DNA from: Candidatus Saccharimonadia bacterium
GTDB lineage: Bacteria; Patescibacteriota; Saccharimonadia; UBA4664
NCBI GenBank assembly: GCA_041743505.1
Contig: JBGTMQ010000019.1
Location: 70,147-134,146, forward strand
Reading direction: 5' to 3'
Length of the DNA: 64,000 bases
Under the pieces are notes generated by a model. The model saw only the letters and a program-made list of their open reading frames with translations. It ran no database searches and had not been told where the DNA came from. Positions 6,484 through 40,414 of this stretch are shown piece by piece; the stretch's first letter is position 1; each line of letters opens with the position of its first letter. Made by a program: the position numbers and the translations under genes.

Positions 6484-6501
6484 ATAACAAAGGCACGAAA
6501 T

Positions 6502-10063: not shown

Positions 10064-11500
10064 GTGCGCCGGACCACAGCCATTAGTCTCATATTCGCCG
10101 CCTTGCTTGCAGGCATAGCGCTGGGTCGGTTCGGCTTCACCATCCCGGTCTGGATGGTAGCCGCGGCTACCATCGGCGCCCTCGTCATCTGCCGTACCCG
10201 CCTGTTCACCCTAGGCCTGATAATACTGGCGCTAACACTTGGACTATGGCGCACCGAAGTCTACCTGGCGCAACAGGGAATCATCACAGATCTAGTAGGT
10301 CAGAAAATCGTCGCGGAAGGCATCGTCGCCGATGATCCCAGCTTCGACCCGCGCGGCTTCATAGTGTTTAAGCTCGGCGAGCTCAAACTAAACGGCCAAG
10401 CCGTACCCGGCGACATCCAGATCAGGATGTACCAGACCAACATGCATCGTGGCTACCAGGTCCATGCCGAAGGCAAGCTACGGGCCGGCTTTGGCAATAC
10501 GCTGGCAGAATTAAGCTATCCCAAACTCCAAATCGTATCAATGCAACAGTCCTGGCTGGAGCAAATCCGTCAAAAGTTCTTCGTCGGCATGAAAACAGCT
10601 CTGGCCGAACCAATGGCCTCGTTCGGTCTGGGGCTTCTGGTCGGGATCCGCTCGCTCATCCCCAAGGACATGGCGGCACAGTTATCGCTGGTGGGCCTAA
10701 GCCACTTGGTTGCGGTATCCGGCTACAACCTCACCATTATCGTGACGGCGGCCCACCGGCTACTCGAGCGCTTCGGGCGGGGAATTGCCCTCATCAGCTC
10801 GCTGTGGCTTATCGGCGGGTTCCTGCTGGTAACGGGTGCCAGCGCCAGCATCGTCCGGGCCAGCTTTGTGTCGGTGCTGGCTCTTTTTGCCGCCTTCTAC
10901 GGCCGCCGGTTCGATGCCATGGCCATTATTCTCCTCACCGCCGGTCTCACAGCCATCTATAAACCGGCCTATCTGTCCGACCTGGGTTGGCTCCTGTCGT
11001 ATCTGGCTTTCTTTGGCATCATGATCCTGGCGCCGGCCCTACAGGCACGTCTGGGCAATCCCAAGAACATCCTGGTCAAACTATTTATCGAGTCCTCAGC
11101 CGCTCAAATCATGACTGTTCCGCTCATTTTGTTCTTTTTCGGCGAATTATCCATCGTGGCGCCATTCACGAACCTCATCATCCTGCCCATGGTGCCGCTC
11201 GCCATGCTGCTTGGTTTCGTAGCGGGGCTGGCCGGCATGATAGCCCCGGCCTTTGCCGGCTGGCTCGCCTGGCCGGCCGACCTGCTCCTGCGGTTTATGC
11301 TGGGTATCGTACAATACGCCGCCGACCTGCCCTGGGCCGGAACTACATTCAAAATTACCTTGGTTAGCATGCTCGTGATGTACGGCCTCATCATTGCTGC
11401 CATCGTCGTGATGAAGCGGATTAACCAGCGTTCGGGGGCCATAGAAGAGTATCGAAGCCCGCTGGTCGAGCCGGGCCTGTCTACTAAAATCCCGGGGTAG
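10064..11500 (+). CDS. comEC: ComEC/Rec2-family DNA internalisation channel (no C-terminal metallo-beta-lactamase domain)
   Basis: polytopic membrane protein with the LVGLSHLVAVSGYNLTII competence-domain signature. Only 478 aa. Confidence 0.7.
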   Translation: MRRTTAISLIFAALLAGIALGRFGFTIPVWMVAAATIGALVICRTRLFTLGLIILALTLGLWRTEVYLAQQGIITDLVGQKIVAEGIVADDPSFDPRGFIVFKLGELKLNGQAVPGDIQIRMYQTNMHRGYQVHAEGKLRAGFGNTLAELSYPKLQIVSMQQSWLEQIRQKFFVGMKTALAEPMASFGLGLLVGIRSLIPKDMAAQLSLVGLSHLVAVSGYNLTIIVTAAHRLLERFGRGIALISSLWLIGGFLLVTGASASIVRASFVSVLALFAAFYGRRFDAMAIILLTAGLTAIYKPAYLSDLGWLLSYLAFFGIMILAPALQARLGNPKNILVKLFIESSAAQIMTVPLILFFFGELSIVAPFTNLIILPMVPLAMLLGFVAGLAGMIAPAFAGWLAWPADLLLRFMLGIVQYAADLPWAGTTFKITLVSMLVMYGLIIAAIVVMKRINQRSGAIEEYRSPLVEPGLSTKIPG

Positions 11501-12599: not shown

Positions 12600-13346
12600 A
12601 TGTCCGGTCACTCAAAATGGGCTTCCATCAAACACCAGAAGGGCGTTAAAGACGCCCGGCGCGGCGCGTCATTTACCAAGTTCGCCAACCTAATCTCCGT
12701 AGCCGCCCGTAGTGGCGCCGATCCGGCCACCAACTTCAAGCTGCGCCTGGCCGTTGATTCGGCCAAAAAAGCCAGCGTACCCAACGCCAACATCGAGCGG
12801 GCCATCAAACGCGGCGCCGGCCTCGACGGTGGCACCTCCTTCGAGGAGGTCATGTACGAAGGCTACGGCCCGGGCGGCGTTGCTATCCTTGCCGAAACCG
12901 CCACCGATAACCGCAACCGCACCGCCAGCGATGTCCGCAGCGCCTTCACCAAACACGGCGGCAGCCTCGGCACGACCGGCTCGGTCGCCTACCAGTTTGT
13001 CCAGCGCGGCCTCATCATCATCCCGGCCACCGACCTGGACACAGCCACCATGGACGCCATTGAGTCCGGCGCCGAAGACGTCGAGGAAGTCGATACCAGC
13101 CTCATCATCTACACCAAGCCGGCCGAGCTCGATGCCGTTCGCAAAACCCTGGCAGGCATTGGCTACGCCGCCGAAAAGGCCGAACTCAGCTTTGAACCCG
13201 GCACCACCATCCAAGTCACCGACGAAGCCACCGCCCGCAAACTCCTCCGCCTCATGGACGCCCTCGACGCCCTCGATGACGTCACCGCCACCTACGTCAA
13301 TTTCGACATTGATCCCAAATTGATGGAGCAGCTGGCCCTGCCTTAG
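12600..13346 (+). CDS. yebC: YebC/PmpR-family transcriptional regulator
   Basis: canonical N-terminus MSGHSKWASIKHQKG and matching full-length architecture. Confidence 0.9.
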   Translation: MSGHSKWASIKHQKGVKDARRGASFTKFANLISVAARSGADPATNFKLRLAVDSAKKASVPNANIERAIKRGAGLDGGTSFEEVMYEGYGPGGVAILAETATDNRNRTASDVRSAFTKHGGSLGTTGSVAYQFVQRGLIIIPATDLDTATMDAIESGAEDVEEVDTSLIIYTKPAELDAVRKTLAGIGYAAEKAELSFEPGTTIQVTDEATARKLLRLMDALDALDDVTATYVNFDIDPKLMEQLALP

Positions 13347-17953: not shown

Positions 17954-18436
17954 ATGAGAATCCTCGGGGTAGATCCCGGCACTGCTACCACCGGCTTTGG
18001 TGTCATCGAACACGAGCGCGGCCAATTTGCCTTTGTCGATGCCGGTGTCATCACCACGCCCCCGAACCAGCCAATGCCTATGCGCCTTGTCACGCTCCAC
18101 CAGGAGCTGGCCCAGGTCATCGCCGACGCCAAACCGGATCAGGCGGCGGTAGAGCTATTATATTTTGCCACCAACGTCACCACCGCCATCACCGTTGGCC
18201 AGGCCAGGGGAGTCATCCTCCTCACCTTGGCCGAAGCTAGCCTCATCCCGGCCGAGTACACCCCAATGCAAATCAAGCAAGCCGTTACCGGCTACGGCGG
18301 AGCCAAAAAACCCCAAATCCAGGAAATGGTTCGTGTCCTACTAAAACTACCCATCATCCCCAAACCCGACGACGCCGCCGACGGCCTGGCCATCGCCATC
18401 ACCCACGCTAATCAAGTCAAGACCCCGAGCCCATGA
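17954..18436 (+). CDS. ruvC: crossover junction endodeoxyribonuclease RuvC
   Basis: MRILGVDPGTATTGFGVIE N-terminus with catalytic Asp; 160 aa. Confidence 0.9.
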   Translation: MRILGVDPGTATTGFGVIEHERGQFAFVDAGVITTPPNQPMPMRLVTLHQELAQVIADAKPDQAAVELLYFATNVTTAITVGQARGVILLTLAEASLIPAEYTPMQIKQAVTGYGGAKKPQIQEMVRVLLKLPIIPKPDDAADGLAIAITHANQVKTPSP

Positions 18437-18470: not shown

Positions 18471-18498
18471 TTGACAATAAAGAAAAAAGTAGTATAAT
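18471..18498 (+). promoter_or_regulatory. near-consensus sigma70 promoter (TTGACA-N16-TATAAT)
   Basis: TTGACA 18471..18476 and TATAAT 18493..18498. A second TTGACA/TATAGA pair with a short spacer lies at 18510..18533. Confidence 0.55.
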
Positions 18499-18584
18499 AA
18501 AAATGTATTTTGACAACGTCATAAGACTATAGATCACCGCCACTATCCGGATATCGGTGAAATCCTACAATGAGAGAGGTCGTT

Positions 18585-19250
18585 ATGACCACCTCCAGTC
18601 AGCCTGTTCATACCCCTGGCCGGGTCTACCCCTACGCCAGCCTGCTGCTTTCGCTTCGGGAGCAGCTGGCCCGCCTCCGCGCCTACAATCCGCAATTCTG
18701 GGGTGGGCAGCTCACCGAGGCACAGCTCGACGCAGTCGATACCACCAGCGACCATACCCAATCAGTCGAGGACCTCGAGGTACTCTACGTCGACTTTGGT
18801 TCGCCGGAGGCCAACCTCGAGCTGTGGTGGAGAGTGCTGGCCGGTACTCAGCCTGACTCCCATCGCTGGTCAACCTTGGTATCAGGCCAAATGAATCTGC
18901 GTCTCGCCGGGTGCGCCCGCCAGTACGAGCCCGGCATCCACAAGATCCGGATCAATCTAGTGGCTCACTGGGAACCCGTGTCCGGCCGCTCTGTCAATCA
19001 AGTCAGAGTCCTGGCCAAGACCAACGGCGAGACACTCGCACACGCTGAAGCCCTGGCTGCCTACGGTCTCCACGATCGGCTGCTTCGGGAGCAGGATGGT
19101 GACATGTTCCCGCACACGACGCTAGCAGGCTGGCAGGATGTCATGCGGTTCCAATGGTACTTGTACGGCCGCCGGGTCATCCTGTGGCCCGGCGGGGCCA
19201 GCACTCTGAGCTGCTCCTCTGCCGTACCGGTGATCATCCCGGAATCGTAA
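18585..19250 (+). CDS. hypothetical cytoplasmic protein
   Basis: RBS GAGAGG before ATG 18585; 222 aa; no recognised motif. Confidence 0.5.
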   Translation: MTTSSQPVHTPGRVYPYASLLLSLREQLARLRAYNPQFWGGQLTEAQLDAVDTTSDHTQSVEDLEVLYVDFGSPEANLELWWRVLAGTQPDSHRWSTLVSGQMNLRLAGCARQYEPGIHKIRINLVAHWEPVSGRSVNQVRVLAKTNGETLAHAEALAAYGLHDRLLREQDGDMFPHTTLAGWQDVMRFQWYLYGRRVILWPGGASTLSCSSAVPVIIPES

Positions 19251-19400: not shown

Positions 19401-19430
19401 TTGAAAATAAATAAAATTTATGCTATAGTA
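19401..19430 (+). promoter_or_regulatory. candidate promoter (TTGAAA-N18-TATAGT)
   Basis: hexamers at 19401..19406 and 19425..19430 in an AT-rich leader. Confidence 0.35.
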
Positions 19431-19494
19431 TAGATATACGGCATTTTTGCCGGTTTTTTAACAACCCAACCCGTCAGATAGGACGTGATCACGA

Positions 19495-20433
19495 GTGCCC
19501 GCCACTCAAATCGAGCGTCTGCCCGAGTCAATCCTTGCCTGGCAGAGCGTACTGACCCATGTTCACACGGCGGGCAGCAGCGCCTGCAGTGGCCAGCAAA
19601 GCCTCGATCAAATCGACACTTTAGCCCGGGCCTTGGGCTTTAGCGCAGTTGTCGTCACCGAGCATAGCTCCAGCCCCGAACGACCCCGGCTCTTCAGTCT
19701 GGATGATCCGGAAGCACGCACCATTGGAGTTGGCGCGGCCGAAATCAGAAGCCGCTACGGTTCTCTCAGCCGCGGATTCGTCCGTTACGGCCTCGAGTGC
19801 AACACGGCTCAGGTAGTCAAATTATCGCGGGCTGAGCCCTACGGCGTAGAAATCGAATTCCGCGTGGACACACCTCCGGCCATCCTTGACTGTTTTCCCT
19901 CGTATGTGGTTGGCTCATTTCATGGCGACGCCGGTGTTTACAAACATCCAGTGGCACTCATGACAGCCATCAAAATGCTGTGTGAACACCCCCGGATTGA
20001 TGCGCTGGGTCACATCACCCGTTACGTCAGTGATGTGTCCATCGACTGGGCCGAGGTTGGCCGGATGGCCGCCGACACTGGCACCATCATCGAATTGAAC
20101 CAGAACCTCTGGTTCAAGGAGTGCTGTCCCAAGAACGTACCGGAGCCGGACGATTCATTCAATTTCCAGTTCCACCGGCGTTTCATCGAAGCTGTGGCCG
20201 GCACTAAGGCGCACCTCATCATCGGGGCCGACGTTCACAATGAGGGCATGCTACCAACCGCCGGTGCTAAGCCCGGCGACTGGCAGACCTCTGTGGGTAG
20301 TGTCATCGCTTACCACCAGTTTCTCGCTGATTGCGGATTGAGAGCTTCTCGAGTGCTCAATTCCGATCTGGCCTGGTACGACCGGGTGCTGACAACGCCA
20401 AAACATCAGCGGTCGAGCTTCTCGTTCGCCTAA
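19495..20433 (+). CDS. PHP-domain metal-dependent phosphoesterase, paralog 1
   Basis: THVHTAGSS (HxH), VVTEHSS, GVEIEF, LGHITR, IIELN and IGADVHN motifs in PHP order. Confidence 0.5.
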   Translation: MPATQIERLPESILAWQSVLTHVHTAGSSACSGQQSLDQIDTLARALGFSAVVVTEHSSSPERPRLFSLDDPEARTIGVGAAEIRSRYGSLSRGFVRYGLECNTAQVVKLSRAEPYGVEIEFRVDTPPAILDCFPSYVVGSFHGDAGVYKHPVALMTAIKMLCEHPRIDALGHITRYVSDVSIDWAEVGRMAADTGTIIELNQNLWFKECCPKNVPEPDDSFNFQFHRRFIEAVAGTKAHLIIGADVHNEGMLPTAGAKPGDWQTSVGSVIAYHQFLADCGLRASRVLNSDLAWYDRVLTTPKHQRSSFSFA

Positions 20434-20530
20434 TCGTTCGCCAAGCCGACCATCAATTCACCTAGCCGGATAGCGCGAAAGCATTCTATCCGGCCACATT
20501 TTTACCCCAAAATGCTTATGTTTGAACAAA

Positions 20531-22171
20531 TTATTGATACAACTTTTCGTAGTAATCGCCCAGCATGCGGCTGGCACAAAATTGTCGCTCGACCAAGTCC
20601 ATATTAGTCCGCATCATCTTGATCCAGTTCAAAGGCAGACCGTTATGCCGGTCATAAAACAGCGGCGCAATATCGTTTTCCAAGATGTCATAAATGGCTG
20701 TCTCAGCGTTCTCGGTCGGTAGTTCCCAGCCGATCGGCTTAATGTCCGCCTCATCAATCCAGCCGTCCGAAGTACTAAACTGCAAGGCCCCGTTGAGGCT
20801 GGCCTTCATACCCGAGGTGCCACACGCCTCCTGGCCCCGCACCGGCGTATTCAGCCACAGGTCAGCACCCTGGACCAACAGCCGCGCCGTCATAGGGTTG
20901 AAGTGCGGTAAGTAAGCGAATGAGGCGGTCAGCTCCGGCCGTTGTGAGGTCATAATAATGTGGTTCATCAGCTCAATACCCGTCGCGTCAGCCGGATTGG
21001 CCTTACCGGCGATCACAAACTGAATCGGCCGCTCCGCATGCCGCGCCAGAGCTGTCAGCCGCTCCAGGTTATTCACCAACAAATCCGGCCGCTTGTAGGC
21101 AGTCATCCGTCGGGCCCACACCACTGTCAGCCGGCGCATCTCCATTTGTTTGCCGGTTTGGTTATGCACGTATTCGAGCAGACGGTGACGGTTCCCGCGG
21201 TGGATCAGGTAATAGGCTTCGTCATCAAGCTTTAGCGGCTCACGGGGCCAGGTAGTAGCCCGCCAGCGCGGCTGAAAAACGCCGTTGGTCACCGCTATCA
21301 ACGGGCTGCCGGGGTGAGCCGCTGCCTCAGCCTGCACGTGAATCTCAGAGACCCCACTATGGCGCCCGGCAATTCCTATCAAAAACTTAGTGGTCGAAAA
21401 GTAGCCATCATCCTTGCCGCCCAGCGCCATCAAATCATCAACGCTGCCGTGTGCTTTGGCTAGCATCGTCCCCAAGTGCTCCTTGAGAACCTCGCGCTCC
21501 AGCGTCAGCCCGGCGCCCGGCAAAATGGTATGTTTGCTGGCGGCCAGTTTCGGCTTAACCGCTTCCAGCGCTCCCACCAAGTGCATGCGTGGGTGATGAC
21601 GCTGATAATCCAGCGCCAGCGCCAGTCCCACAAACGCCATATGCCCCTCATTCAGATGGTAAACCTCGGGGGTAATATCCAGCTTGTGCAAGAAGGCCAC
21701 CCCACCAAACGCCAGCAGCAGTTGCTGCGTGAACATCATGCCCATGGTCCCGTCATAAAGATGGTTGGTGATTCTCCAGTCCTCGGGCGAGTTGGTCGGC
21801 AGCCGGGTATCGAGTAAGATCAGACTGCTCGTACCATATGATTTGCGCCAGGCCTGTATCGCCACCCTGGCGCCGCCAATTGCCACATTCAGAATAATCG
21901 GTCGGCCGTCATCCTCGGCCGCTACCTCAAACCCCTCAGCCCGCAGCCGCTCCACAATCGGGCGGGTGTCGCTCTCTCCGGCCGTAAAAGCTTCGTGATA
22001 GACCAGTCCGACGGCATGAAAATCCCGGCCCTCAGCACCGGCTTCTTGCACAATGTCGCCGGCCAGAATGCCCAGTCCTCCCGCATAAATTGGCAGTGAA
22101 TCGGCCACCGAATACTCGGCTGAGAAGTAGGCAATAGTTTTATGCATACCCGAATTATAATGGCTCGGCAC
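20531..22171 (-). CDS. glgP: alpha-glucan (glycogen/maltodextrin) phosphorylase, GT35 short form
   Basis: pyridoxal-phosphate site QEACGTSGMKASLNGAL; about 546 aa. Confidence 0.85.
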   Translation of the reverse strand: MPSHYNSGMHKTIAYFSAEYSVADSLPIYAGGLGILAGDIVQEAGAEGRDFHAVGLVYHEAFTAGESDTRPIVERLRAEGFEVAAEDDGRPIILNVAIGGARVAIQAWRKSYGTSSLILLDTRLPTNSPEDWRITNHLYDGTMGMMFTQQLLLAFGGVAFLHKLDITPEVYHLNEGHMAFVGLALALDYQRHHPRMHLVGALEAVKPKLAASKHTILPGAGLTLEREVLKEHLGTMLAKAHGSVDDLMALGGKDDGYFSTTKFLIGIAGRHSGVSEIHVQAEAAAHPGSPLIAVTNGVFQPRWRATTWPREPLKLDDEAYYLIHRGNRHRLLEYVHNQTGKQMEMRRLTVVWARRMTAYKRPDLLVNNLERLTALARHAERPIQFVIAGKANPADATGIELMNHIIMTSQRPELTASFAYLPHFNPMTARLLVQGADLWLNTPVRGQEACGTSGMKASLNGALQFSTSDGWIDEADIKPIGWELPTENAETAIYDILENDIAPLFYDRHNGLPLNWIKMMRTNMDLVERQFCASRMLGDYYEKLYQ

Positions 22172-22185
22172 GGGCCGTGAAAGCG

Positions 22186-23199
22186 CTAGACCTTAAAATG
22201 GTTGCTGCTGCCCAAAACACCTTGAATAGTATCTACAAAAAACTGCACAGCCCGCTTGTCATACTCAGGCGCACCAATAGGGCCCCCATCCGCAAAGTAC
22301 TGATGGTTGGCGAAGCTCTGGACCAATAATTCGCTCTCCCAATACAGTCGGCCGTCGCCCTCAAAGTAACCGTACTCCTCCAGGATCTCAACATACTCTG
22401 CCTGCCACTCCGGGTCGTCAAAACACCGCATCCACAGCACCGACAAATCTTGTAGCGCATGACCCCAGCCCACGTTTTCCCAGTCAATCAGACTAACCTT
22501 GTCGTGAACCAAAAATACATGGCACGAGTAAGGCTCATACTGGGTGATAACTTTCCGGTAATTCTCGTAACGAGGCTTGGCAGCCGCAAACTGCTCGGCC
22601 AAGTGGTCAGCAGACTGGCGGAATTCCGGCATGGTCTGAGCCCGCTCAACGCTTCGTTCAAACCGGCTTTCGTTCGTCAGCGTCGAAGTGAATGCCTGGA
22701 TCATGTCTTCCAGCGACTGCGGCAGCTGGCCCGACAAACTGTGCAGCTTGTGGAAAAAATCCACGGCTTGCCGCGGACTGACGGCCTGGTAGAATCGGGG
22801 ACTAAACACAAAATTCGAGTCCCAGGCCGACATCGGCCGCTCGCTAATGTACGTCCGCAGCGACCACACCGGCGAGACATCGGACATGGCAATAATCTGC
22901 GGCTCAAACCCCGCCTCACCCAGCTGCTGCGAGAAAAACTGCAAGAACAAAGCCTCCTTTAGCAGCCGCCGCTCCAACAGGTCAATCCGCTCAAACTCAG
23001 TCCATTTATATCCTGGCGGTGTATTACGCTCACCGCGCTCACTCTCGGGCAGAACCATTTTGAACATGCCTTTACGCTCACCGCTTTTAACCGTCAGGCA
23101 GATAAAACGTGGACCGTAGCGCAGTACGCTCAGCAGTTCAAAATGGTTTTCTTTGAGTACGTTTAAGACGAACGGCGAAAGCTCGTTGGTAGCTTGCAT
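22186..23199 (-). CDS. APH-fold (aminoglycoside phosphotransferase/maltokinase-like) kinase
   Basis: VHDKVSLIDWENVGWGHALQDLSVL resembles the APH catalytic/DFG-equivalent region (IDWE...DLA). Confidence 0.45.
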   Translation of the reverse strand: MQATNELSPFVLNVLKENHFELLSVLRYGPRFICLTVKSGERKGMFKMVLPESERGERNTPPGYKWTEFERIDLLERRLLKEALFLQFFSQQLGEAGFEPQIIAMSDVSPVWSLRTYISERPMSAWDSNFVFSPRFYQAVSPRQAVDFFHKLHSLSGQLPQSLEDMIQAFTSTLTNESRFERSVERAQTMPEFRQSADHLAEQFAAAKPRYENYRKVITQYEPYSCHVFLVHDKVSLIDWENVGWGHALQDLSVLWMRCFDDPEWQAEYVEILEEYGYFEGDGRLYWESELLVQSFANHQYFADGGPIGAPEYDKRAVQFFVDTIQGVLGSSNHFKV

Positions 23200-23239
23200 G
23201 TTGAAGGCCTTATTAAGGGTAAATGTAACGATAGTTGCG

Positions 23240-24736
23240 CTACTGGGCGCCGCGTTGCTCGGGCTGTCCGCCTCTCATCCGGCGGTAAGGTTCAGTGTAC
23301 TTGTCTAGCGTGCGTTCAATTTCATCATTGGGTAGCTTGGTTCGGAGCAGGTCGACGGCGTGGATGGTTTCGTAAATATCAGTTTTGTGCTCAATCTTAT
23401 ACAACGCGTCCCGCCACAGTACCGCTGCCTCATAATCGCCCCGCTTCACGGCCGCCGCCTCTTGGTCTTTCATCATATCCATAAAAGCGTGGTAAACGCC
23501 CTCTTCGCGACCGCCTTTCTCGAATGTGCGCTCCTTAAATGGGATCCGCAGAATACTAGCACGTTCTTGCTGTATCTGGAAGATCTTGCCCGTGCGTTTC
23601 CAGCTAAAAGCCGACGCCACTATCTGATGGTAGTACGATTCGCCCCGCTCGAACTGGTAGGGGTCGATATTGGGCAAATGCTGAAGAATCTCCAGCAGAT
23701 GGAACGCGCCCTCCTCGATCATCTCAATGCTCCACCATGGCTTAGCCGAGGCCCAAAAGAACTGGTCGGAGGCCAGGGCGCTATCCAGCATCCCGCGCAG
23801 TCGGCTCCATTCCGGGTCCGTTTCCGGCAATTCGTAAAATTGCTCCACCGTCAGGTCCCGCAATTGCCATTGCAACTTGTGAATGTCATTGGCCGGGTCA
23901 TTCCAGGAAATAAACTGGATACCTTCGGTAATATCCTGCTCGCTGGACGCCCAGGTTGATCCCACCGGCTTGATGGTCTTGGTATCATCATAGTGGTCAA
24001 ACAGCTCGCTCATCGTCACCAGGTTCAGCTCAGGCGAGTCAAAAATCTCAAACAACAGGTTTTCCAGCCCCGGCCGGTGATGGCCAAATGTTTCGCCGTC
24101 CATGCCCGTAATCACGTAGCGCGGGCTCTTCAGGTCGTCGCGAATCGCGTCCTTCAACTGGTCCACGTGCCTCACCACCGCGCTCATTATCAAGTTACTC
24201 ATCCGCCGCTCGCGGAAAAACACATGCAAATTCGTATCCTTAACCTTGTAGAGCTTGGTGTAGTCTACCTGTTCCACCCGGCCGTTGAAGGCGATTTCAT
24301 CAATAATCATCCACTTGAAACCAGCTTCCTCAAGTATCGGTGCCACCTCTGGGCTGTAAGCCATTTCAGGCAAAAAAATGCCCGTCGGCGCATACGCGTC
24401 ACCGAGGTAATGCCGGTTAGTCTCATTGTTAATCTCAATCTGCCGCAGCATCTCCCGGCGCGACAAAAACGGCAGCAGCGCATGGTACTTAGCCGAACCG
24501 GTAAACTCGACCTTGCCTTGCCGGCCGGCTTCCGCTAAGCCCTCAATGAGGTCATGGTAGCCATATTTATCAAATAACTCCAGCAAGGAGCCGTTAATAT
24601 TTAATGTAATCCTGGCGCCGTCATGCTTGAGCAGATTCCGGGCCAGCGGCCGGTACGATTGCTTGACCACCATATCCAGGATATCCGGCTGCTGGCCGTG
24701 GGGTTGGTAAATATGAAGAAAATTAGACCAAAACAT
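23240..24736 (-). CDS. GH57-family glycoside hydrolase (1,4-alpha-glucan branching enzyme-like)
   Basis: FLHIYQPHGQ, GIFLPEMAYS (nucleophile Glu motif) and GMDGETFGHH. Confidence 0.75.
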   Translation of the reverse strand: MFWSNFLHIYQPHGQQPDILDMVVKQSYRPLARNLLKHDGARITLNINGSLLELFDKYGYHDLIEGLAEAGRQGKVEFTGSAKYHALLPFLSRREMLRQIEINNETNRHYLGDAYAPTGIFLPEMAYSPEVAPILEEAGFKWMIIDEIAFNGRVEQVDYTKLYKVKDTNLHVFFRERRMSNLIMSAVVRHVDQLKDAIRDDLKSPRYVITGMDGETFGHHRPGLENLLFEIFDSPELNLVTMSELFDHYDDTKTIKPVGSTWASSEQDITEGIQFISWNDPANDIHKLQWQLRDLTVEQFYELPETDPEWSRLRGMLDSALASDQFFWASAKPWWSIEMIEEGAFHLLEILQHLPNIDPYQFERGESYYHQIVASAFSWKRTGKIFQIQQERASILRIPFKERTFEKGGREEGVYHAFMDMMKDQEAAAVKRGDYEAAVLWRDALYKIEHKTDIYETIHAVDLLRTKLPNDEIERTLDKYTEPYRRMRGGQPEQRGAQ

Positions 24737-24747
24737 AAGTCGGTATC

Positions 24748-25668
24748 CTATTTCACTAATGGTAATCTGGCGCGAGCGGCTTTGTCCATCTGTAGCCAGC
24801 CGTCAAAACGGTCATAGTCGGCGGAAACAACCCGTTCGGGCTTGATGCCGGCGGTTGCCAGCGCCTCTAAAAACCGCGCCAACTGGTTATCGTGGCGGCT
24901 GGCCGGCTGGTCGAGCGAGCGCCATTGCAGCGCAAACTCATCCAACTGGTACTGGTTATGAATATCGGTGCCAATAAATACGGCCGCTTTGGAACGGGCC
25001 AAGCTGCGTAGCCATTTATCCCAAAAGCGGTGCTGCACATGGCTGGCGTCCGGACCCGGGAAGGCGTTTAAGTTGATTTCAACCGCTGTGCCGGTTTCGG
25101 CCGCCCAGGCGAATATCTGCCGCCAATCAACCGTCACCAGGTCCTCGATGTAGCGCGGCGGATGACCCAGCACTGCCACGGCCGGATTGTTACAAGTTCG
25201 CTCAAACAAGGCCATCACCGAATCCGGATCGCGCTCAGTCGCCTCCGGCAGTGCATGCCGCGAAGCTATCACCATAGCGCAGTGGTCGGCCAGCCGCGGC
25301 GTCAAGTCCGTGCCGCCGCCGGGTAGCAAACTGACCTCCAGGCCATAATACACCGGCACGCGGTGAACCATCGGCCGCCGCCGCTGCTTCAGTAGCCGTT
25401 GCCCCCGCAAACTCAAAACACCCAGCCGCCGCGGCCGCGCCGGATCCGACGGGTGCTCGTTCAGCATCACATATCGCAGTGGCGCCTCCTCGCTACCAGC
25501 CAGCCCGGCGTCCACTAGCGTCTGCACCAACCGGTCAACTGACAGGTCGCTCTCGTGGTGGCCTCTATGATTGGATAGGACGGTATGAGCATGCGTCAGG
25601 CCGCCAATGTAGCGCACTGCCAATTGGCTCCACTGAGACTTTCCTACCATTTCTTGGGTATCTGCCAC
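24748..25668 (-). CDS. PHP-domain metal-dependent phosphoesterase, paralog 2
   Basis: THAHTVLSNH, LNEHPS, LGHPPRY, VEINLN and IGTDIHN; alignable with 19495..20433. Confidence 0.5.
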   Translation of the reverse strand: MADTQEMVGKSQWSQLAVRYIGGLTHAHTVLSNHRGHHESDLSVDRLVQTLVDAGLAGSEEAPLRYVMLNEHPSDPARPRRLGVLSLRGQRLLKQRRRPMVHRVPVYYGLEVSLLPGGGTDLTPRLADHCAMVIASRHALPEATERDPDSVMALFERTCNNPAVAVLGHPPRYIEDLVTVDWRQIFAWAAETGTAVEINLNAFPGPDASHVQHRFWDKWLRSLARSKAAVFIGTDIHNQYQLDEFALQWRSLDQPASRHDNQLARFLEALATAGIKPERVVSADYDRFDGWLQMDKAARARLPLVK

Positions 25669-27116
25669 GGCTGGCCCTGGTGTTCCTTAATTGCTGCCCG
25701 GTACATCCGCACGTATTTCTTGGCCGGAATCTCCCACGAGTAAGACAACGCCATGGCCCTAAGCATTAACGCCCCCCATCTTGGCTTGTCGTGCCACAGC
25801 GCCACCGCTTGGGAAATAGCGCTGTACAGGGCCGGGCCGGTGTAGTCGTCAAACACAAACCCGTTGCCGGCCCCAGTCCGGTGGTTGTAGTCAGTGATGG
25901 TATCGGCCAGCCCGCCGGTCCGCCGCACTACCGGTATAGTGCCATACCGTAAGCTCACGAGTTGGCCGAGTCCGCTAGGTTCAAACAATGACGGCATCAG
26001 AAAAATATCCGCCCCGGCATATACCAGACTGCCCAGCTCGTCCGAGTAAGGCCGGTAAGCTACCTGGTCGGGGTATTGCCGCATCTTTTCATCCAGAAAG
26101 CGCAAGAACGCCCCCTGGCCGGAATCTCCCACCACCACGGTCTGCACCCCCTGCTGCATCAGCTGGTCAAAGATCTCAAATACCAAGCTAAAACCTTTTT
26201 GCTCGGTTATGCGGGAATTCATGCCCAGAATTGGCAGGTTGTCATCTATGGGTAGGCCCAACCGGTGCTGCAAGGCCCGCTTGTTGTCATACTTGCGATG
26301 AATAATCTCAAAGTCATAATTTACCGGCAAATACTCGTCGAACAATGGGTTCCAGTACGAATAATCAACACCGTTACGAATTCCAAAAAACGTTCGCTCC
26401 CGGGGCTTTAGCACATCGTACAGGCCATGGCTGGTATCGAGGCGCAGCAGCTCTTTGGCATACTGCACGCTCACTGTTGTCACGATATCGGCATGGACAA
26501 TCCCGCGCTTCAAAAAGTTAATATACTGTACCTTGGCCAAGTCGGTCGGCGGAATCCCTGAGCCTTGGTCCTGCTCGTCTTCCGGCACGTGCCACTGGTT
26601 AACGATGGCGGCATAGGCAGAGTTATGAATTGTCTCAACTGTGGCAATATTCTTGTAGGGCGAATCCTCAGGCAAGTACTTAAGGATGTTAGGGATCAAC
26701 CCGGCATGCCAATCGTGAATGTGGATAATATCAGGCACCCAGTCCAGAGTTTCCAGGAGCCGGAAGACACTTAAGTTAAAAGCATAGTAGGGTAGGTTAC
26801 CATCCTCTGCCCGGTACAAGCCTTTACCCGGAGGAAAGTACTGCTGCGACTCCAAAAAATAAATCGGCACCTCTTGAGACAAGATGCTCGCATGAAAATG
26901 GATGGGGGATTTCTCGCCACCCACGTTTAATTGCTTTTCACGGCCAATCGGCACAAAAGCAAATTTTTGCCGGTCTATGTTGCCATACAGCGGCATAAAT
27001 ACCCGCACGTCATGCCCTAACCGGTGCACTGCCTTGGGCAGCGCGGCCATTACTTCCCCCAAGCCGCCGGTTTTGGCATACGGGGCGGCTTCTCCAGCTA
27101 TCATGAGAATATTCAT
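25644..27116 (-). CDS. glgA: glycogen/starch synthase (GT5)
   Basis: MNILMIAGEAAPYAKTGGLGEVMAALP, the KTGGLGDV-type motif; 490 aa. Confidence 0.9.
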   Translation of the reverse strand: MNILMIAGEAAPYAKTGGLGEVMAALPKAVHRLGHDVRVFMPLYGNIDRQKFAFVPIGREKQLNVGGEKSPIHFHASILSQEVPIYFLESQQYFPPGKGLYRAEDGNLPYYAFNLSVFRLLETLDWVPDIIHIHDWHAGLIPNILKYLPEDSPYKNIATVETIHNSAYAAIVNQWHVPEDEQDQGSGIPPTDLAKVQYINFLKRGIVHADIVTTVSVQYAKELLRLDTSHGLYDVLKPRERTFFGIRNGVDYSYWNPLFDEYLPVNYDFEIIHRKYDNKRALQHRLGLPIDDNLPILGMNSRITEQKGFSLVFEIFDQLMQQGVQTVVVGDSGQGAFLRFLDEKMRQYPDQVAYRPYSDELGSLVYAGADIFLMPSLFEPSGLGQLVSLRYGTIPVVRRTGGLADTITDYNHRTGAGNGFVFDDYTGPALYSAISQAVALWHDKPRWGALMLRAMALSYSWEIPAKKYVRMYRAAIKEHQGQPWQIPKKW

Positions 27117-29376: not shown

Positions 29377-29937
29377 ATGATTGCCACATTACTAGGTGAA
29401 ATCACCGAAAAGCTGCCCGATAGCCTCGTTTTGGAGGCCGCCGGCGTGGGCTATGAGCTGTTCGTCGCCGTCGATACCTGGGGCGGCGCCAAGGTCGGCG
29501 AGGAAGCCCGCTTCTACATCTATGAGCAAATCCGCGAGGACGCCCACAATTTGTATGGTTTCCGTGAGCTCACCTCACGCCAGTTATTCGTCCAACTCCT
29601 GGGGGTCAATGGCGTTGGCCCCAAGCTAGCCATGCAAATTCTCAGCTCCGCCGGCGAGACGCGCTTACGCCAGGCCATTGCCAGCGGCGACCCCGCCTTG
29701 CTCAAAGGCGTCTCCGGTGTCGGCACTAAAACCGCCCAACGCGTCATCCTGGATCTGCGCGGCAAAGTCGAAGAAGGCGCCGCCGGCCTGGCGCCGGTAG
29801 CCGACAGCACCTATCAAGCCCTCGTCGCCCTTGGCTACACGCCCGCCCAAGCCACCGCCGCCGTTAACGCCCTGCCCGACGACGTCACCGACGAGCAGGA
29901 GCGCGTCAAGCTGGCATTGAAAGGAGCGGGCAAGTGA
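29377..29937 (+). CDS. ruvA: Holliday junction DNA helicase RuvA
   Basis: MIATLLGEI...GVGYELFV N-terminal OB domain, HhH motifs (LQLLGVNGVGPKLA), C-terminal domain III. Confidence 0.9.
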   Translation: MIATLLGEITEKLPDSLVLEAAGVGYELFVAVDTWGGAKVGEEARFYIYEQIREDAHNLYGFRELTSRQLFVQLLGVNGVGPKLAMQILSSAGETRLRQAIASGDPALLKGVSGVGTKTAQRVILDLRGKVEEGAAGLAPVADSTYQALVALGYTPAQATAAVNALPDDVTDEQERVKLALKGAGK

Positions 29938-31115: not shown

Positions 31116-32129
31116 ATGATTGAACGCATCGTCAACCCGGAAGCCGACACCGAAACCGACGCCGCCACTGAGCAGGTTCTCGAGACGATCCGGCCTAAAA
31201 GCTTTGCGTCCTACGTCGGCCAACCGTTGCTCAAGCAAAACCTGGCGCTCGCCATCGATGCGGCCAAAGTCCGCGCCGAGCCCGTCGATCACATCCTGCT
31301 CTACGGCCCGCCCGGCCTCGGCAAAACCACCATGGCCGGCGTCATTGCCCACGAACTCAGCGCCAACATCCGCATCACCAGCGGGCCGGCCATCGAGCGC
31401 GCCGGCGACCTCGCCAGCCTGCTCACCAATCTGGCCGACGGCGACGTCCTGTTCATCGACGAAATCCACCGCCTACCCAAAACCGTCGAGGAGGTACTCT
31501 ACCCGGCCATGGAAGACTTTGGCCTCGACGTCATGCTCGGTAAAGGTCCATCCGCCAAATCCATCCGTCTCGACCTGCCAAAATTCACCATCATCGGCGC
31601 CACTACCCGTGCCGGCGCCCTCAGCGCGCCCCTCCGCGACCGCTTCGGCCACATCCACAAGCTCGAATTCTACTCCACCGACGAAATGATCGAAATTATC
31701 GAGCGCACCGCCAAAATCCTCAATGTGGCCATCGACCGCGAAGCCTCCGGCGAAATCGCCCAACGCGCGCGTCTGACCCCGCGCATTGCCAACCGCCTCC
31801 TCAAACGCGTCCGCGATTACGCCCAAGTTAAACAAGTCGACACTGTTACCCGTAAGTCCGCCCGCGACGCCCTGCATCTTCTCGAAATCGACGAGCTCGG
31901 TCTCGACACCTCAGACCGCAAATTACTCCAAGCCATCATCGACAACTATGGCGGCGGGCCGGTCGGCGTCGAAACCCTGGCCGCTATCTGCGCCGAAGAA
32001 CGCGCTACCATCGAGGACGTCTACGAACCATACCTCATGCAAATCGGCCTGCTCGAACGCACCGTGCGCGGCCGCAAAGTCACCCTTAAGGCCTACTCAC
32101 ACCTTGGTGTCACACCTCCAGCTATGTAA
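31116..32129 (+). CDS. ruvB: Holliday junction branch-migration ATPase RuvB
   Basis: Walker [13 protein letters not shown], Walker [11 protein letters not shown], sensor and arginine-finger regions. Confidence 0.9.
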
Positions 32130-35634: not shown

Positions 35635-36170
35635 CTGGCCTGCCCCGGCTTAAAGCCGATTACTACGCTGGACTGGAACGAGCTGGCGTTCTGGGCAATA
35701 TTCTCCAGGTCAACGCCACTAATTCGCGGCGAGTTAGCTGCAGCGTCCCGAAAGGCCAGCATGGAATTGTAGCTGTCGCCCGTAACGGTGACACGTACGG
35801 GCTTCGTGTCATCGCCGGTTAGCGTAATACTAACGATGGCCACGCCCTGAGGTAGCACCTTAGCCAGGTCATCCAGCAATAGCGAAAAGCGCGTCTGAGT
35901 ACTTTGGATCGTCTTAATTGCGGTCAACCGGTCCGCCGCTTCCCGCGACTTTTTAACGTTCGGCGCATGACTGGCAATTGTTTGTTGCTTATCGGCAACG
36001 TCACGGGTTAGCGCATTAGCCTGCTGCCCCAAAAAGTACAGTGTGACGCCAAATATCGCCGTCAGCACAATCAGCACTAGTACCAACATGCGCAGATAAC
36101 CCAGAACCCGGCGGTTAAGCTTGGCATAATGCATCTGCTCCTTGATGTCTGGCGACAAGAGGTTAATCAT
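35631..36170 (-). CDS. pilN: type IV pilus assembly protein PilN-like
   Basis: MINLLSPDIKEQ...RRVLGYL N-terminus (PilM-binding peptide) then TM; ATGA overlap with pilM. Confidence 0.6.
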   Translation of the reverse strand: MINLLSPDIKEQMHYAKLNRRVLGYLRMLVLVLIVLTAIFGVTLYFLGQQANALTRDVADKQQTIASHAPNVKKSREAADRLTAIKTIQSTQTRFSLLLDDLAKVLPQGVAIVSITLTGDDTKPVRVTVTGDSYNSMLAFRDAAANSPRISGVDLENIAQNASSFQSSVVIGFKPGQAR

Positions 36171-37219
36171 AACGTGCCCTCCAGCCGCGCCAACCCGATA
36201 GCGGTCGTGTACATGGGCGCCTCCAGTGCCGAGACATTCTGGATGTTTTTGAGCAGAAGACCCTCCCACGGCGCAGCAATATTAACCGGAATGCCAAGCT
36301 GTTGGCTCATGTATTCAACCAGCCCGGGCATACCGGCGCTACCACCGGCCAAAATAACTGTTTGAATCGGCCGCTTATCCGCGCCACGGTCAGCGTAGAA
36401 TTTCATCACCCGCTTCATCTCACTACAAATAGTATCAAGCTGAGGCTTCATCGCCGCCGTAATCTTAACCTGGAGTCCGGACGGGCCAATGCCGAACTTA
36501 AACTTAATTTCATTCGCTTGCTCGTGTTTAATCTCCAGCTCGTTCATCAGCTGAACGGTCAAGTTGTCTCCACCCAGCGCGATGGTGTCTGTCAGGCGGG
36601 TAACCCGGTCGTGCACGGCCAGGTCGATCGAGTTTGAGCCCATATCTGCCACCAGAGTCACCTTGTCCATGGGCTTGGCCGACAACAAAGCCCTCGTCAC
36701 GGCCGACAGGCTTGACTCAATAAACACGACCTCCAGGTTCATCAAGGAAAATAGCTTGATATAGCTGTCTACGATCGCCCGCGGTGCCGCCACCATCAGC
36801 ACCTGGAGATGCTCGGTTTGACGCTCGATGATCTCATAATCAATATACAAATCCGGCAAAGGCACCGGCACATACTGCTCGGCCTCCAGTTTGACCGCCG
36901 CGTCAAGGTCGGCCGTTTCCATCGGCGGTAGTTGCAACACCCGGGTAAATGTCTTGGCCACCGGCAAGGCCGTAGCCACTCGGGTAGCGGTAATGTGACC
37001 GTAACTCATTTGGGTCAATAGCGGCTTGAGCGCCTTAGCAATTTCCTGTGGGTCCACAATAATGCCCTCAACAATGGCATCATCGGGGAACATTGCATAA
37101 CCATAACCCAACACTTGCATTCCCTTGCTGGTGGGGCGCAATTGAATCATTTTAGCAGTCCGGGTACCAAGGTCAAACCCGAACAGCGGTTCATATTTGT
37201 AAACGAGGCGAACTTGCAT
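36167..37219 (-). CDS. pilM: type IV pilus assembly ATPase-fold protein PilM
   Basis: actin-like ASKHA fold signature FGFDLGTRTAKMIQL...; 350 aa. Confidence 0.8.
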   Translation of the reverse strand: MQVRLVYKYEPLFGFDLGTRTAKMIQLRPTSKGMQVLGYGYAMFPDDAIVEGIIVDPQEIAKALKPLLTQMSYGHITATRVATALPVAKTFTRVLQLPPMETADLDAAVKLEAEQYVPVPLPDLYIDYEIIERQTEHLQVLMVAAPRAIVDSYIKLFSLMNLEVVFIESSLSAVTRALLSAKPMDKVTLVADMGSNSIDLAVHDRVTRLTDTIALGGDNLTVQLMNELEIKHEQANEIKFKFGIGPSGLQVKITAAMKPQLDTICSEMKRVMKFYADRGADKRPIQTVILAGGSAGMPGLVEYMSQQLGIPVNIAAPWEGLLLKNIQNVSALEAPMYTTAIGLARLEGTL

Positions 37220-37253
37220 CTATATAACCATAACAATATTCATTTTAGCACGC

Positions 37254-38672
37254 TTAGAGAGCCTCGTAGTATCGCACATCCCATGAACTGCTACCCCCCG
37301 AAGAGCTGCTGCCGAAGGTAATGTTACCAGAGTTACTCAAGGTTATTTTTTGTGCCATAATCGCGCCAATATTCCCACCATTGCTCAGCGTCAGCGCTGT
37401 CCAGCGGGCATAAAATGTACTGCTGGCGGCCAAACCTTGGTTATTAATACTAACGGTCTGCACATTCATGGAACTGTTAAGGTTAGAGCCTGTCACGGTG
37501 GAGCAGTCTGGCGAACATGAGGCTGTTGAGTAGAAGGTAATAAAATTGGCACCTATGCCATTTGTGTTGGTGGCTACAACCGATGAATTGCTCATCGTAA
37601 TACCGCCAGAGCCGTCGATCATGACGGTGGGTGTCGTGGTAACGCCAGCCGCCAGCCTCAACTGACTGCTATTAGATAGGCTCAGCGTTCCAGTAATCCA
37701 GGCGTTTCCGGACAACGTCACATTGCAACTGTTACTCAACGAGACGTTGCCGGTGATCTTCACGTTGGCCGGCCAAGTCTTAGCTTGACTACCACTGCAA
37801 GAGGCCGCCGAGCCGCTGATATTATGAACCGGCCCGGCAGGAACAGCGGCTTTTTGCCCGTCGCGGTCATAATCGGGCAAGGTCACGGCAGCGACGCCGC
37901 TGGCTTCTGTCAGCCCCGGATTAGACAAACCGGTAGTAGTAATTTGGCCGTTGGCTTTAGTGTCACCATAAATGCGGGCACTATTAGTTATAGTAATGGG
38001 ATTGTTTTGCGTCCCCATCGGGCAAATCTGCGGCCACGTAGCGTTTACAGGAACGGGGCAACGCTGGTTTGCTACTGATACGGCCACCGGCGAGGCAGCC
38101 GAACCAATCCGGGATGAGTTACTCATGGTGAGGAAACCTCCGACATAAACCGGGCCGGTGGTAATAGTCGCAGAGTTGCTCATAACCAGCCCGCCTGGCC
38201 CGGTCTGAATCACGTAGCCACCGGAGGGGGTGCCTTCAATGATGAGCCGGACTTTTTTGGTAGATTTAGGTGTCACGGATGAGGCCGGGGCATAAACCTT
38301 ACCCACGGCATAAACAATTTTTTCATTGGCAATAGTGCCGCTGGTAACACAGGTTTCGTATGTAGCCCGGCCCTGGGCATTGCTATAGAGCGTTACTGGG
38401 TTGGAACCACTGGAGGTTATCGGGCAAACAGTGTTGGTACCGGTGTAGGAGCCACTTTGGTTGATCTCATACATAAACCGGTCTGCGCCAGCTTCGGCCG
38501 CATAAACCGCATTGGTAGTATAGGTCGAACGTTTAGCGGCTCCCAGGTTATAGAGTCCCAGCGTCATCACTCCCATCAAAATCGTCAAGACAACGAAGCC
38601 TTGGACAAGCATAAGAATGAGCAGGAAGCCATTTTCTGAGCTACGTAATGGTAATTGCAATCGTTTCATCAT
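37254..38672 (-). CDS. large pilin-like protein (PilX/PilY1-position tip or minor pilin, lacks Glu5)
   Basis: N-terminal NGFLLILMLVQGFVVL hydrophobic helix resembling a class III signal without the conserved Glu. 472 aa, rich in G/S/T/N (beta-helix-like). Confidence 0.45.
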   Translation of the reverse strand: MMKRLQLPLRSSENGFLLILMLVQGFVVLTILMGVMTLGLYNLGAAKRSTYTTNAVYAAEAGADRFMYEINQSGSYTGTNTVCPITSSGSNPVTLYSNAQGRATYETCVTSGTIANEKIVYAVGKVYAPASSVTPKSTKKVRLIIEGTPSGGYVIQTGPGGLVMSNSATITTGPVYVGGFLTMSNSSRIGSAASPVAVSVANQRCPVPVNATWPQICPMGTQNNPITITNSARIYGDTKANGQITTTGLSNPGLTEASGVAAVTLPDYDRDGQKAAVPAGPVHNISGSAASCSGSQAKTWPANVKITGNVSLSNSCNVTLSGNAWITGTLSLSNSSQLRLAAGVTTTPTVMIDGSGGITMSNSSVVATNTNGIGANFITFYSTASCSPDCSTVTGSNLNSSMNVQTVSINNQGLAASSTFYARWTALTLSNGGNIGAIMAQKITLSNSGNITFGSSSSGGSSSWDVRYYEAL

Positions 38673-39753: not shown

Positions 39754-39782
39754 ATTGATATTATACTGCTTACGCTCATCAA

Positions 39783-39813
39783 AAACGACCCCGGTAGAGA
39801 GGTCGTTTTCAGA
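39783..39813 (-). terminator. rho-independent terminator after pilA
   Basis: aaacgacc-ccggtagagag-ggtcgttt hairpin with T-run on the minus strand. Confidence 0.6.
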
Positions 39814-39828
39814 TTGGCTCAGGAAGTT

Positions 39829-40402: not shown

Positions 40403-40414
40403 TAACGCACAACA

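Follow-up and report, generated by a model that had tools for sequence, protein, structure and literature searches.

We analysed a 64-kb stretch of DNA (64,000 nt of contig JBGTMQ010000019.1, hereafter the window) from a Candidatus Saccharimonadia bacterium, in which a minus-strand operon runs from a glycogen synthase gene (glgA) through genes for a PHP-fold phosphoesterase (PHP1), an enzyme of glycoside hydrolase family 57 (GH57) and an APH-fold kinase to a phosphorylase gene (glgP), with a gene for a PHP1 paralog (PHP2) convergent to it. Six open reading frames (ORFs) were confirmed exactly where the original prediction, made from the sequence alone, had placed them. Coordinates, family models and motifs all agreed with the gene order that it had proposed, including the convergent second PHP gene, and the three motifs that it had named (KTGGLGEV, GIFLPEMAYS and the pyridoxal-phosphate lysine site) were all found in the ORFs. 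The genes of the minus-strand operon are separated by 11–40 nt.

GlgA, of glycosyltransferase family 5 (GT5), scored 450.3 bits against TIGR02095 (cutoff 328.45) with residues 1–474 covered, and its matches to PF08323 (201 bits) and PF00534 showed that both GT-B domains are present; AKTGGLGEV lies at residues 13–21, and GlgA relatives shared 71–85% identity across all related loci. The phosphorylase belongs to the short alpha-glucan/maltodextrin type, with 418.6 bits against TIGR02094 (cutoff 191.7), a match to PF00343, 272 bits against the Thermococcales maltodextrin phosphorylase (MalP) model and the pyridoxal-phosphate lysine motif GTSGMK (GTSGMKASLNG); its length is 538 aa in the public gene call and 546 aa in the ORF. 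TreS and GlgE were found neither in the window, in line with the original prediction, nor at any of the 20 related loci. The promoter scan gave no convincing site directly upstream of glgA, and the terminator scan gave no match in the 97-nt convergent spacer. The cluster is a genuine alpha-glucan (glycogen-type storage) operon of a Saccharimonadia bacterium, and it contains two undescribed, conserved components, the kinase and the PHP phosphoesterase.

Conservation of the kinase and PHP genes in glucan clusters

Related loci are designated L below. A genome scan gave 5 loci and a metagenome scan 3, and the relatives in the genome scan were metagenome-assembled genomes of Candidatus Saccharimonadia/Saccharibacteria (TM7, Patescibacteria). 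The five-gene module was found in at least 12 Saccharimonadia lineages and in five gene orders. The order of the window, glgA-PHP1-GH57-kinase-glgP, recurred in L001/2/6 and L005, and the truncated contigs L004 and L007 showed only its glgA-PHP1-GH57 start. The other orders were glgA-PHP1-kinase-glgP without GH57 (L003), glgA-GH57-kinase-PHP1-glgP (L008 and L010), glgA-GH57-PHP1-kinase-glgP (L020, L021 and L022) and glgA-GH57-glgP-PHP1-kinase (L017). PHP1 orthologs were present in every Saccharimonadia-type cluster, and translational coupling of the kinase and PHP genes was frequent, with overlaps of 4–53 nt (L003, L011, L017 and L018). Because the same genes stay together through this shuffling, there is strong evidence that the kinase and PHP1 are selected, functionally coupled parts of the glucan module. 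The original prediction had tied PHP1 functionally to the glucan genes and had named a lack of PHP/glucan co-occurrence in other genomes as evidence against such a tie; that condition does not hold, since PHP1 was kept with glgA, GH57 and glgP through all five orders, and the cluster is shared by the lineages counted above.

The association extends beyond these clusters, and all contexts that could be read for kinases down to E ~1e-24 were alpha-glucan clusters. Distant kinases, about 22% identical and with the same catalytic signature, occurred in two further arrangements: glgA-GH57(x1–2)-kinase-PHP-glgA2-GalT-like in L011 and L018, and kinase-PHP-glgA-GalT-like in L016, where no ruv genes were in view. 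The PHP protein of the distant clusters is not orthologous to PHP1 or PHP2; it is of the COG0613 type and scored 113–139 bits, below the cutoffs, against the models for 3',5'-nucleoside bisphosphate phosphatase and RNase RNM. Because of this lack of orthology, a PHP phosphoesterase must have been recruited beside the kinase family at least twice, independently, from different PHP subfamilies. Still more distant loci (L012–L014) showed the order glgA-GH57-SDR-kinase-glgA2-GalT-like, in which the short-chain dehydrogenase/reductase (SDR) is of the classical adh_short type and the kinase has a canonical HxN…N loop. In L019 (kinase E ~1e-20), the glucan context was lost. GT5 and the kinase form the stable core of these arrangements, to which GH57 and a PHP enzyme are usually added; the phosphorylase is confined to the Saccharimonadia type and the GalT-like nucleotidyltransferase to the distant clusters.

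This GalT/HIT-type hexose-1-phosphate nucleotidyltransferase (PF01087, DUF4921/DUF4931) is encoded directly after the second glgA in the distant clusters and is a possible GlgC-independent source of nucleoside diphosphate glucose (NDP-glucose). L018 also contains two GH57 paralogs and an extra APH-family gene without a recognisable catalytic loop. The second APH genes of L017 and L018 were considered as paralogs of the kinase and rejected, being unrelated, canonical or divergent APHs.

Table 1. Locations of the operon genes, their neighbours and other features of the window, and of selected features of related loci
Feature	Locus	Coordinates	Strand	Length	Evidence
glgA, GT5 glycogen/starch synthase, first gene of the operon	window	25644-27116	-	490 aa	TIGR02095, PF08323, KTGGLGEV
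PHP1, YcdX/PolX-like PHP-fold metal phosphoesterase (predicted)	window	24748-25668	-	306 aa	fold model and metal ligands
GH57 enzyme with intact catalytic dyad	window	23240-24736	-	498 aa	PF03065
APH-fold kinase	window	22186-23199	-	337 aa	PF01636
glgP, short alpha-glucan/maltodextrin phosphorylase, last gene of the operon	window	20531-22171	-	546 aa	TIGR02094, PF00343
PHP2, PHP1 paralog, convergent to the operon	window	19495-20433	+	312 aa	similarity to PHP1 and metal ligands
yebC	window	12600-13346	+
ruvC	window	17954-18436	+
ruvA	window	29377-29937	+
ruvB	window	31116-32129	+
Promoter-like site	window	18471-18498
ORF between ruvC and PHP2	window	18570-19250	+	226 aa
Second promoter-like site	window	19401-19429
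Terminator-like hairpin	window	19439-19452
Transposase	window	1968-2840	-		IS1595 family (ISXO2-like)
Probable cell-envelope polysaccharide module	window	3597-8265	+
Type IV pilus/competence genes	window	10064-11500	+
Type IV pilus/competence genes	window	36167-45435	-
Lamin-tail protein	window	45933-47831	+	632 aa	three lamin-tail domains
Cutinase-domain protein	window	50793-52211	-	472 aa	cutinase domain
GalT-like gene	L011	13349-14314
GalT-like gene	L013	6108-6866
GalT-like gene	L016	4028-4969
GalT-like gene	L018	13351-14337
GH57 paralog	L018	5868-7079		403 aa
GH57 paralog	L018	7591-8973		460 aa
Extra APH-family gene	L018	8979-9998		339 aa
APH kinase and PF15698 protein	L017	12107-13872

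Properties of the kinase, PHP and GH57 proteins

The kinase matched PF01636 with 31.6 bits (cutoff 23.2) over residues 111–281, and each of the 11 family members examined against this model matched it too. Its structure model (predicted local distance difference test, pLDDT, 89.8) showed a plain two-lobe APH/choline-kinase-type fold filling all 337 residues, and Foldseek gave a probability of 1.00 against many APH, Mph and ChoK structures. The fold neighbours in the PDB were APH(2''), APH(4), PsiK, Mph, NahK, MtnK and LicA (TM ~0.5, 10–15% identity); every good match is a small-molecule kinase, NahK and MtnK being anomeric ones, and YtaA/CotI was also among the matches. The key residues are K47, E82, E222 (base), H227 and D239 (metal ligands), of which K47 (the beta3 Lys), E82 (the alphaC Glu) and D239 (the DFG-equivalent Asp, in IDWEN) are invariant in the family. 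The canonical HGDxxxxN loop is replaced throughout the family by (H/Q)xE[P/L/A/V][Y/F]xxH, followed by IDWEN, with the first His being Gln in the window protein, and the C-lobe contains many invariant Trp, Tyr and Phe residues. The sole PDB sequence match to the catalytic region was MphH (THGELYPAH, E 0.43 over 38 residues); when the two are aligned, E222 takes the place of the catalytic base and H227 that of a metal ligand in Mph enzymes. A pseudokinase, suggested by the missing HGD…N loop, was therefore rejected, as E222 and H227 align with the MphH Glu and His and are conserved family-wide. Because of this alignment, the invariance of K47, E82 and D239 and the retention of the loop signature across the 73-cluster family, the kinase is very probably an active enzyme of an undescribed subfamily.

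Exhaustive HMMER analysis of 1.84 billion 50%-identity representatives placed 73 clusters in this family at E ≤ 1e-10 and yielded 95 matches at E ≤ 1e-3; word-indexed searches, which find close relatives only, had recovered 27–33 clusters. NCBIfam matches were weak and scattered (GntI, APH(9), CotS, CcrZ and APH(3'), and a YsxE-type model). Identity as a maltokinase (Mak/Pep2) was rejected, since the protein has 337 aa as against ~440–455 aa, contains no Mak_N_cap domain and matched no maltokinase model; furthermore, no Mak structure was among the best 50 Foldseek PDB matches. The kinase thus appears from its sequence to be an isolated family and not a maltokinase, and the resemblance to Pep2/Mak that the original prediction had seen is contradicted by length, domain content, family models and fold ranking alike. 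The same prediction had held that grouping with antibiotic or homoserine kinases rather than with sugar kinases would count against its proposal: the nearest weak matches are indeed antibiotic, toxin and coat-protein kinases, but none of them is close.

PHP1 had no Pfam match, PF02811 included, its sequence being too divergent for the model. Its AlphaFold model (pLDDT 92.9) matched YcdX (1m65; E 1.4e-10, TMt 0.78) and PolX PHP domains in Foldseek, with histidinol-phosphate phosphatases (HisK) as weaker matches, and profile comparison of the family with the PDB gave the same two relatives (PolX PHP, 5.6e-13; YcdX, 9.3e-13). The conserved residues are H26, H28, E71, H72, E111, H138, H169, D235 and H237, and the complete PHP metal-ligand set (HxH, EH, E, H, H, DxH) was present in both PHP1 and PHP2 (alignment A1). 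We are confident in predicting that PHP1 is a YcdX/PolX-like PHP barrel with all ligands for three metals. The original prediction had proposed to look for a trinuclear metal site in the two paralogs, and both the ligands and the PHP1 fold model agree with one. A CpsB/YwqE-like tyrosine phosphatase identity for PHP1 was rejected, as such proteins were absent from the PDB profile search and from the best 50 Foldseek matches. The PHP1 family comprised 45 clusters at 90% identity among 5.8 billion proteins in a word-indexed search, which covers close relatives only.

The overlap of PHP1 with glgA depends on the start codon. A GTG start at 25668 gives the 25-nt overlap that the original prediction had used as an argument for shared function; an ATG start at 25650 reduces it to 7 nt at the glgA stop (ATGGTAG), and the public gene call, with GTG at 25617 preceded by GGAG, leaves no overlap. 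Because the residues upstream of the 25617 start are conserved in PHP1 homologs and modelled as a confident helix, an overlapping start is likely, though not proven.

PHP2 is 26% identical to PHP1 (E 2e-21) and scored 18 bits against PF02811, below the cutoff of 26.4. Its setting differs from that of PHP1. The minus-strand glucan operon is inserted within a plus-strand yebC…ruvC…ruvA-ruvB array. All Saccharimonadia loci have the glucan cluster at this place, with ruvA-ruvB on one side and ruvC-yebC on the other, and the order yebC-ruvC-glgA… is retained even by the distant L011 and L018. PHP2 is co-oriented with yebC, ruvC and ruvAB and lies ~100 nt downstream of ruvC in L001 and L003. The window, L001, L003 and L017 contain orthologs and L005 a divergent copy; L008, L020 and L021 lack the gene, and in these three ruvC comes directly after glgP. 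In view of its place on the ruvC strand and its absence from several clusters, we regard PHP2 as an accessory paralog; its membership of the pathway is uncertain, and it may instead work with the ruv genes. A role at DNA ends is possible, because the closest solved relatives of the family include the PolX 3'-phosphoesterase domain. Of the proposal in the original prediction that both PHP paralogs belong to the pathway, the part concerning PHP1, which stays with the module, is upheld, whereas the strand of PHP2 and its absence from those three loci weaken the other part.

Several small features accompany PHP2. A 226-aa ORF without Pfam or NCBIfam matches lies between ruvC and PHP2 and is preceded by a promoter-like site that matches the sigma-70 consensus perfectly (12/12). 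Just before PHP2 stand a terminator-like hairpin and another promoter-like site. The PHP2 ortholog of L017 has beside it the genes for an APH kinase of canonical type (HNDLWWDN loop) and for a 'Phosphatase' protein (PF15698), which form a second kinase/phosphatase set between the glucan cluster and ruvC.

The GH57 enzyme scored 123.7 bits against PF03065. E124 in its GIFLPEMAYS motif (FLPEMA) is the nucleophile and D213 (MDGETFGHH) the proton donor, and both residues were invariant among 10 divergent relatives. The closest solved relative is the Thermococcus litoralis 4-alpha-glucanotransferase 1k1w (E 7e-12 with the single sequence, 8.7e-19 with the profile), aligned across the whole barrel (residues 7–252), whereas solved branching enzymes align over a segment of ~70–120 residues only. 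The NCBIfam branching-enzyme equivalogs gave 28.4 bits (NF041566, cutoff 920) and 26.1 bits (NF041133, cutoff 1000), both confined to residues 52–130. GH57 branching enzymes have a fingerprint of Leu at logo position 23 in conserved sequence region 4 (CSR-4) and Phe plus a non-aromatic residue at positions 35–36 (PMC6037648). In the window enzyme, CSR-4 is GMDGETFGHH, with Thr instead of Leu at position 23, and CSR-5 is ALASDQFFW, with F-W at positions 35–36 by alignment to the T. litoralis CSR-5.

On the model scores, the 1k1w match and the fingerprint, the sequence-based call of a branching enzyme, as made in the original prediction, was dropped; the activity itself was not rejected. The sequence places GH57 closest to 4-alpha-glucanotransferase, in an unassigned GH57 clade. 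It might still branch, because no other branching enzyme is in view. Residues ~440–475 (DYEAAVLWRDALYKIE) form a C-terminal UVR-like helical motif (profile match to a UvrB C-terminal peptide, E 0.002), and Pfam UVR was also weakly matched in a GH57 paralog of L018. Such a motif is unusual in glycoside hydrolases and may serve protein-protein interaction.

Elsewhere in the window, we identified a transposase with a zinc-ribbon domain, a glycosyltransferase family 2 gene between two polysaccharide deacetylase genes, and two stretches of type IV pilus/competence genes (PilM, prepilin, T2SSF/PilC, T2SSE/PilB and ComEC), a set typical of epibiotic Patescibacteria. The lamin-tail and cutinase-domain proteins may be located at the surface or take part in host interaction. 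Scanning the window for Rfam families and tRNAs gave no match.

Possible roles of the kinase and phosphoesterases

We tentatively favour a reading in which the two genes provide a carbohydrate kinase and a sugar-phosphate phosphoesterase (PHP1) that serve GlgA and GH57 as a pair. From the identities, active-site residues, folds and clustering described above, we infer the following substrates and reaction order. GlgA would build alpha-1,4 chains, GH57 would remodel such chains as a transglycosylase, and the short phosphorylase would release glucose-1-phosphate. The kinase would phosphorylate, in an ATP-dependent reaction, the free sugar released or used by GH57 (glucose, maltose or a short malto-oligosaccharide), probably at the anomeric carbon (C1) as NahK, Mak and MtnK do. 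The phosphorylated sugar would then return to the hexose-phosphate/NDP-glucose pool feeding GlgA. In that pool, hydrolysis of a sugar-phosphate ester by PHP1 would serve for trimming or as a safety valve. In favour of this reading, the kinase travels with synthesis genes and, in the distant clusters, with a hexose-1-phosphate nucleotidyltransferase; a kinase feeding the hexose-1-phosphate pool would fit this GalT-like neighbour. The small-molecule kinases among the fold neighbours, the intact Mph-type loop and the likeness of GH57 and the phosphorylase to Thermococcus maltodextrin enzymes also count in its favour.

Several observations weigh against it. The kinase shows no specific similarity to any sugar kinase, its weak matches being GntI, APH(9), CotS, CcrZ and MphH. 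L003 and L016 contain the kinase and a PHP gene and no adjacent GH57, and no glgC, galU, pgm or GalT-like gene was found in the 64-kb window, so that the source of NDP-glucose is not seen here. As for the two PHP types, their known relatives either work on phosphoesters of nucleotides or nucleic acids or have no known substrate. Furthermore, the kinase and PHP1 acting on one small sugar would form a futile cycle, and the role of PHP1 is the weakest step of the proposal. Because a co-expressed kinase and phosphatase working on a single metabolite would be futile, explanations at the level of the polymer or of proteins stay alive.

At the polymer level, which we consider somewhat unlikely, the kinase would phosphorylate glucosyl residues of the polymer or its primer and one or both PHP enzymes would remove the phosphate, a cycle that would control solubility, chain initiation or phosphorylase access. 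A coupled kinase/phosphoesterase pair makes most sense if it acts sequentially on a polymer and not on one metabolite, and the pair accompanies GlgA in every cluster type. As GH57 is not demonstrably a branching enzyme and is absent from L003, the product could be poorly branched and prone to crystallisation. The presence of two PHP paralogs would have a counterpart in plants, with their two glucan phosphatases, and the invariant aromatic residues of the kinase C-lobe also suit such a substrate. However, neither the kinase, whose fold fills the entire protein, nor the PHP proteins contain a carbohydrate-binding module (CBM), the structural neighbours of the kinase all act on small molecules, and PHP2 is dispensable in several lineages. 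The known glucan kinases are dikinases and the known glucan phosphatases have the dual-specificity phosphatase (DSP) fold, so homology lends the cycle no support.

A switch at the protein level is decidedly unlikely. Here the kinase would phosphorylate GlgA, the phosphorylase or both, and PHP1 would take the phosphate off again, in place of the missing allosteric control at GlgC. In eukaryotes, both glycogen synthase and phosphorylase are regulated by phosphorylation, and capsule synthesis is regulated by CpsB phosphatases of the PHP type together with their kinases. Kinase/phosphatase pairs are typical of switches, and an operon that combines synthesis and degradation genes with no glgC in view would need post-translational control. 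The weak matches to CotS, YsxE and CcrZ-type models and the YtaA/CotI fold match permit protein substrates, but the fold neighbours are overwhelmingly small-molecule kinases with an APH-type C-terminal helical subdomain. PHP1 shows likeness to YcdX, PolX and HisK only and none to CpsB/YwqE, and the partner of the kinase in L012–L014 is an SDR and not a phosphatase.

It is very unlikely that synteny alone explains the PHP genes, as YcdX/PolX-like DNA-end or nucleotide phosphoesterases belonging with yebC-ruvC and ruvAB. In its favour are the position of the cluster, flanked by ruvC-yebC and ruvAB at all Saccharimonadia loci, the place of PHP2 on the ruv strand, with ruvC directly upstream of it in L001 and L003, the PolX 3'-phosphoesterase PHP domain among the closest solved relatives and the nucleotide-phosphatase-type PHP of the distant clusters. 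Against it, PHP1 lies inside the minus-strand operon with 11-nt gaps and moves with the kinase through five gene orders, and no ruv genes are in view in L016, which combines the kinase and PHP genes with glgA and a GalT-like gene. For PHP2 only, this explanation is plausible.

It is possible, though doubtful, that the kinase/PHP pair represents a previously unknown enzymatic step of bacterial storage-glucan metabolism, in either of two versions. The kinase may use ATP to phosphorylate the glucan or a primer, with the PHP enzymes as phosphatases dedicated to the glucan, which would be a non-homologous bacterial counterpart of the starch/glycogen phosphorylation cycle. Alternatively, an anomeric glucose/maltose 1-kinase may act with a GalT-like transferase to supply NDP-glucose without phosphoglucomutase or GlgC, in which case GH57 might be a sugar-1-phosphate-dependent polymerase analogous to GlgE.

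To our knowledge, the enzyme list of bacterial glycogen metabolism is regarded as essentially complete. In a 2024 review of prokaryotic alpha-glucan enzymes, maltokinase is the sole kinase and HAD enzymes are the sole phosphatases, and a 2026 preprint on Saccharimonadia mentions glycogen genes and neither the kinase nor PHP. Our literature searches found no description of this kinase/PHP pair in glucan operons. In a class of ultra-small, host-dependent bacteria, whose small genomes cannot afford superfluous genes, the glucan operon has a rare kinase family and PHP phosphoesterases among its fixed components. That the pair recurs in many related lineages suggests that bacterial alpha-glucan metabolism includes a phosphorylation step not described so far. 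The identities of the substrates could reveal a new route to or from sugar-1-phosphates, bacterial glucan phosphorylation or a new control point, and would also give a function to a branch of YcdX-like PHP proteins and to a GH57 clade. The kinase that phosphorylates animal glycogen is, as far as we know, still unknown.

Comparison with known systems

Mak/Pep2 of the GlgE pathway shares with the window kinase the APH/eukaryotic-like kinase fold, ATP dependence and encoding beside alpha-glucan genes, and by this analogy an anomeric sugar-kinase activity is a reasonable guess. Unlike Mak, the window kinase has no N-terminal cap and its HxE…H loop is not of the Mak type; its partner is GH57 and not GH13_3, and neither TreS nor GlgE lies near it. 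MphH/Mph(2') shares the Glu base, the His metal ligand (THGELYPAH versus HYEPYxxH) and the (I/L)DW metal-binding motif, whereas overall identity is ~12%, the gene context is unrelated and nothing points to an antibiotic substrate.

The bifidobacterial lnpABCD operon encodes a phosphorylase, NahK, GalT and GalE. L011, L013, L016 and L018 resemble it in combining an APH-fold kinase with a GalT-type gene and sometimes an SDR; a glycan phosphorylase gene is a further point of likeness, and NahK is a fold match of the window kinase. By analogy, the APH-fold kinase, the GalT-like gene and, in L012–L014, the SDR would mirror the logic of lnpBCD. The window cluster, in contrast, has no GalT-like gene, the SDR is of the adh_short and not the epimerase type, and the partner is GlgA and the product alpha-glucan.

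The Thermococcus litoralis maltodextrin pathway combines a glucose-releasing GH57 4-alpha-glucanotransferase, a maltodextrin phosphorylase and a glucose kinase. The window operon is similar in that its GH57 is nearest to 1k1w, the two phosphorylases share the short TIGR02094 family and there is a kinase gene next to them. However, the window GH57 has 498 aa and lacks the C-terminal beta-domain of the 659-aa T. litoralis enzyme, it has a mixture of fingerprint residues, the operon also encodes GlgA and a PHP enzyme, and the kinase fold is unlike that of ADP-dependent glucokinase.

The PHP proteins YcdX and PolX share with PHP1 and PHP2 a distorted (beta/alpha)7 barrel and the full His/Asp/Glu ligand set for three metals, and no other proteins matched the two better by sequence profile and fold. 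PolX PHP acts on DNA 3' ends, and we know of no substrate for YcdX. Identity to these proteins is 17–21%; PHP1 exceeds YcdX in length by ~60 residues, lacks a polymerase domain and has its gene within a glucan operon.

The plant enzymes GWD/PWD with SEX4/LSF2, and laforin of animals, share a possible logic with the window, that of a kinase plus one or two phosphatases for a storage alpha-glucan. GWD is a dikinase, and SEX4, LSF2 and laforin have the DSP fold with CBM20 or CBM48, whereas the window encodes a PHP barrel and an APH kinase with no CBM; the parallel would be one of function only, with no homology. FAM20B with PXYLP1, which act on proteoglycan primers, would be a further analogue of such a polymer-level cycle.

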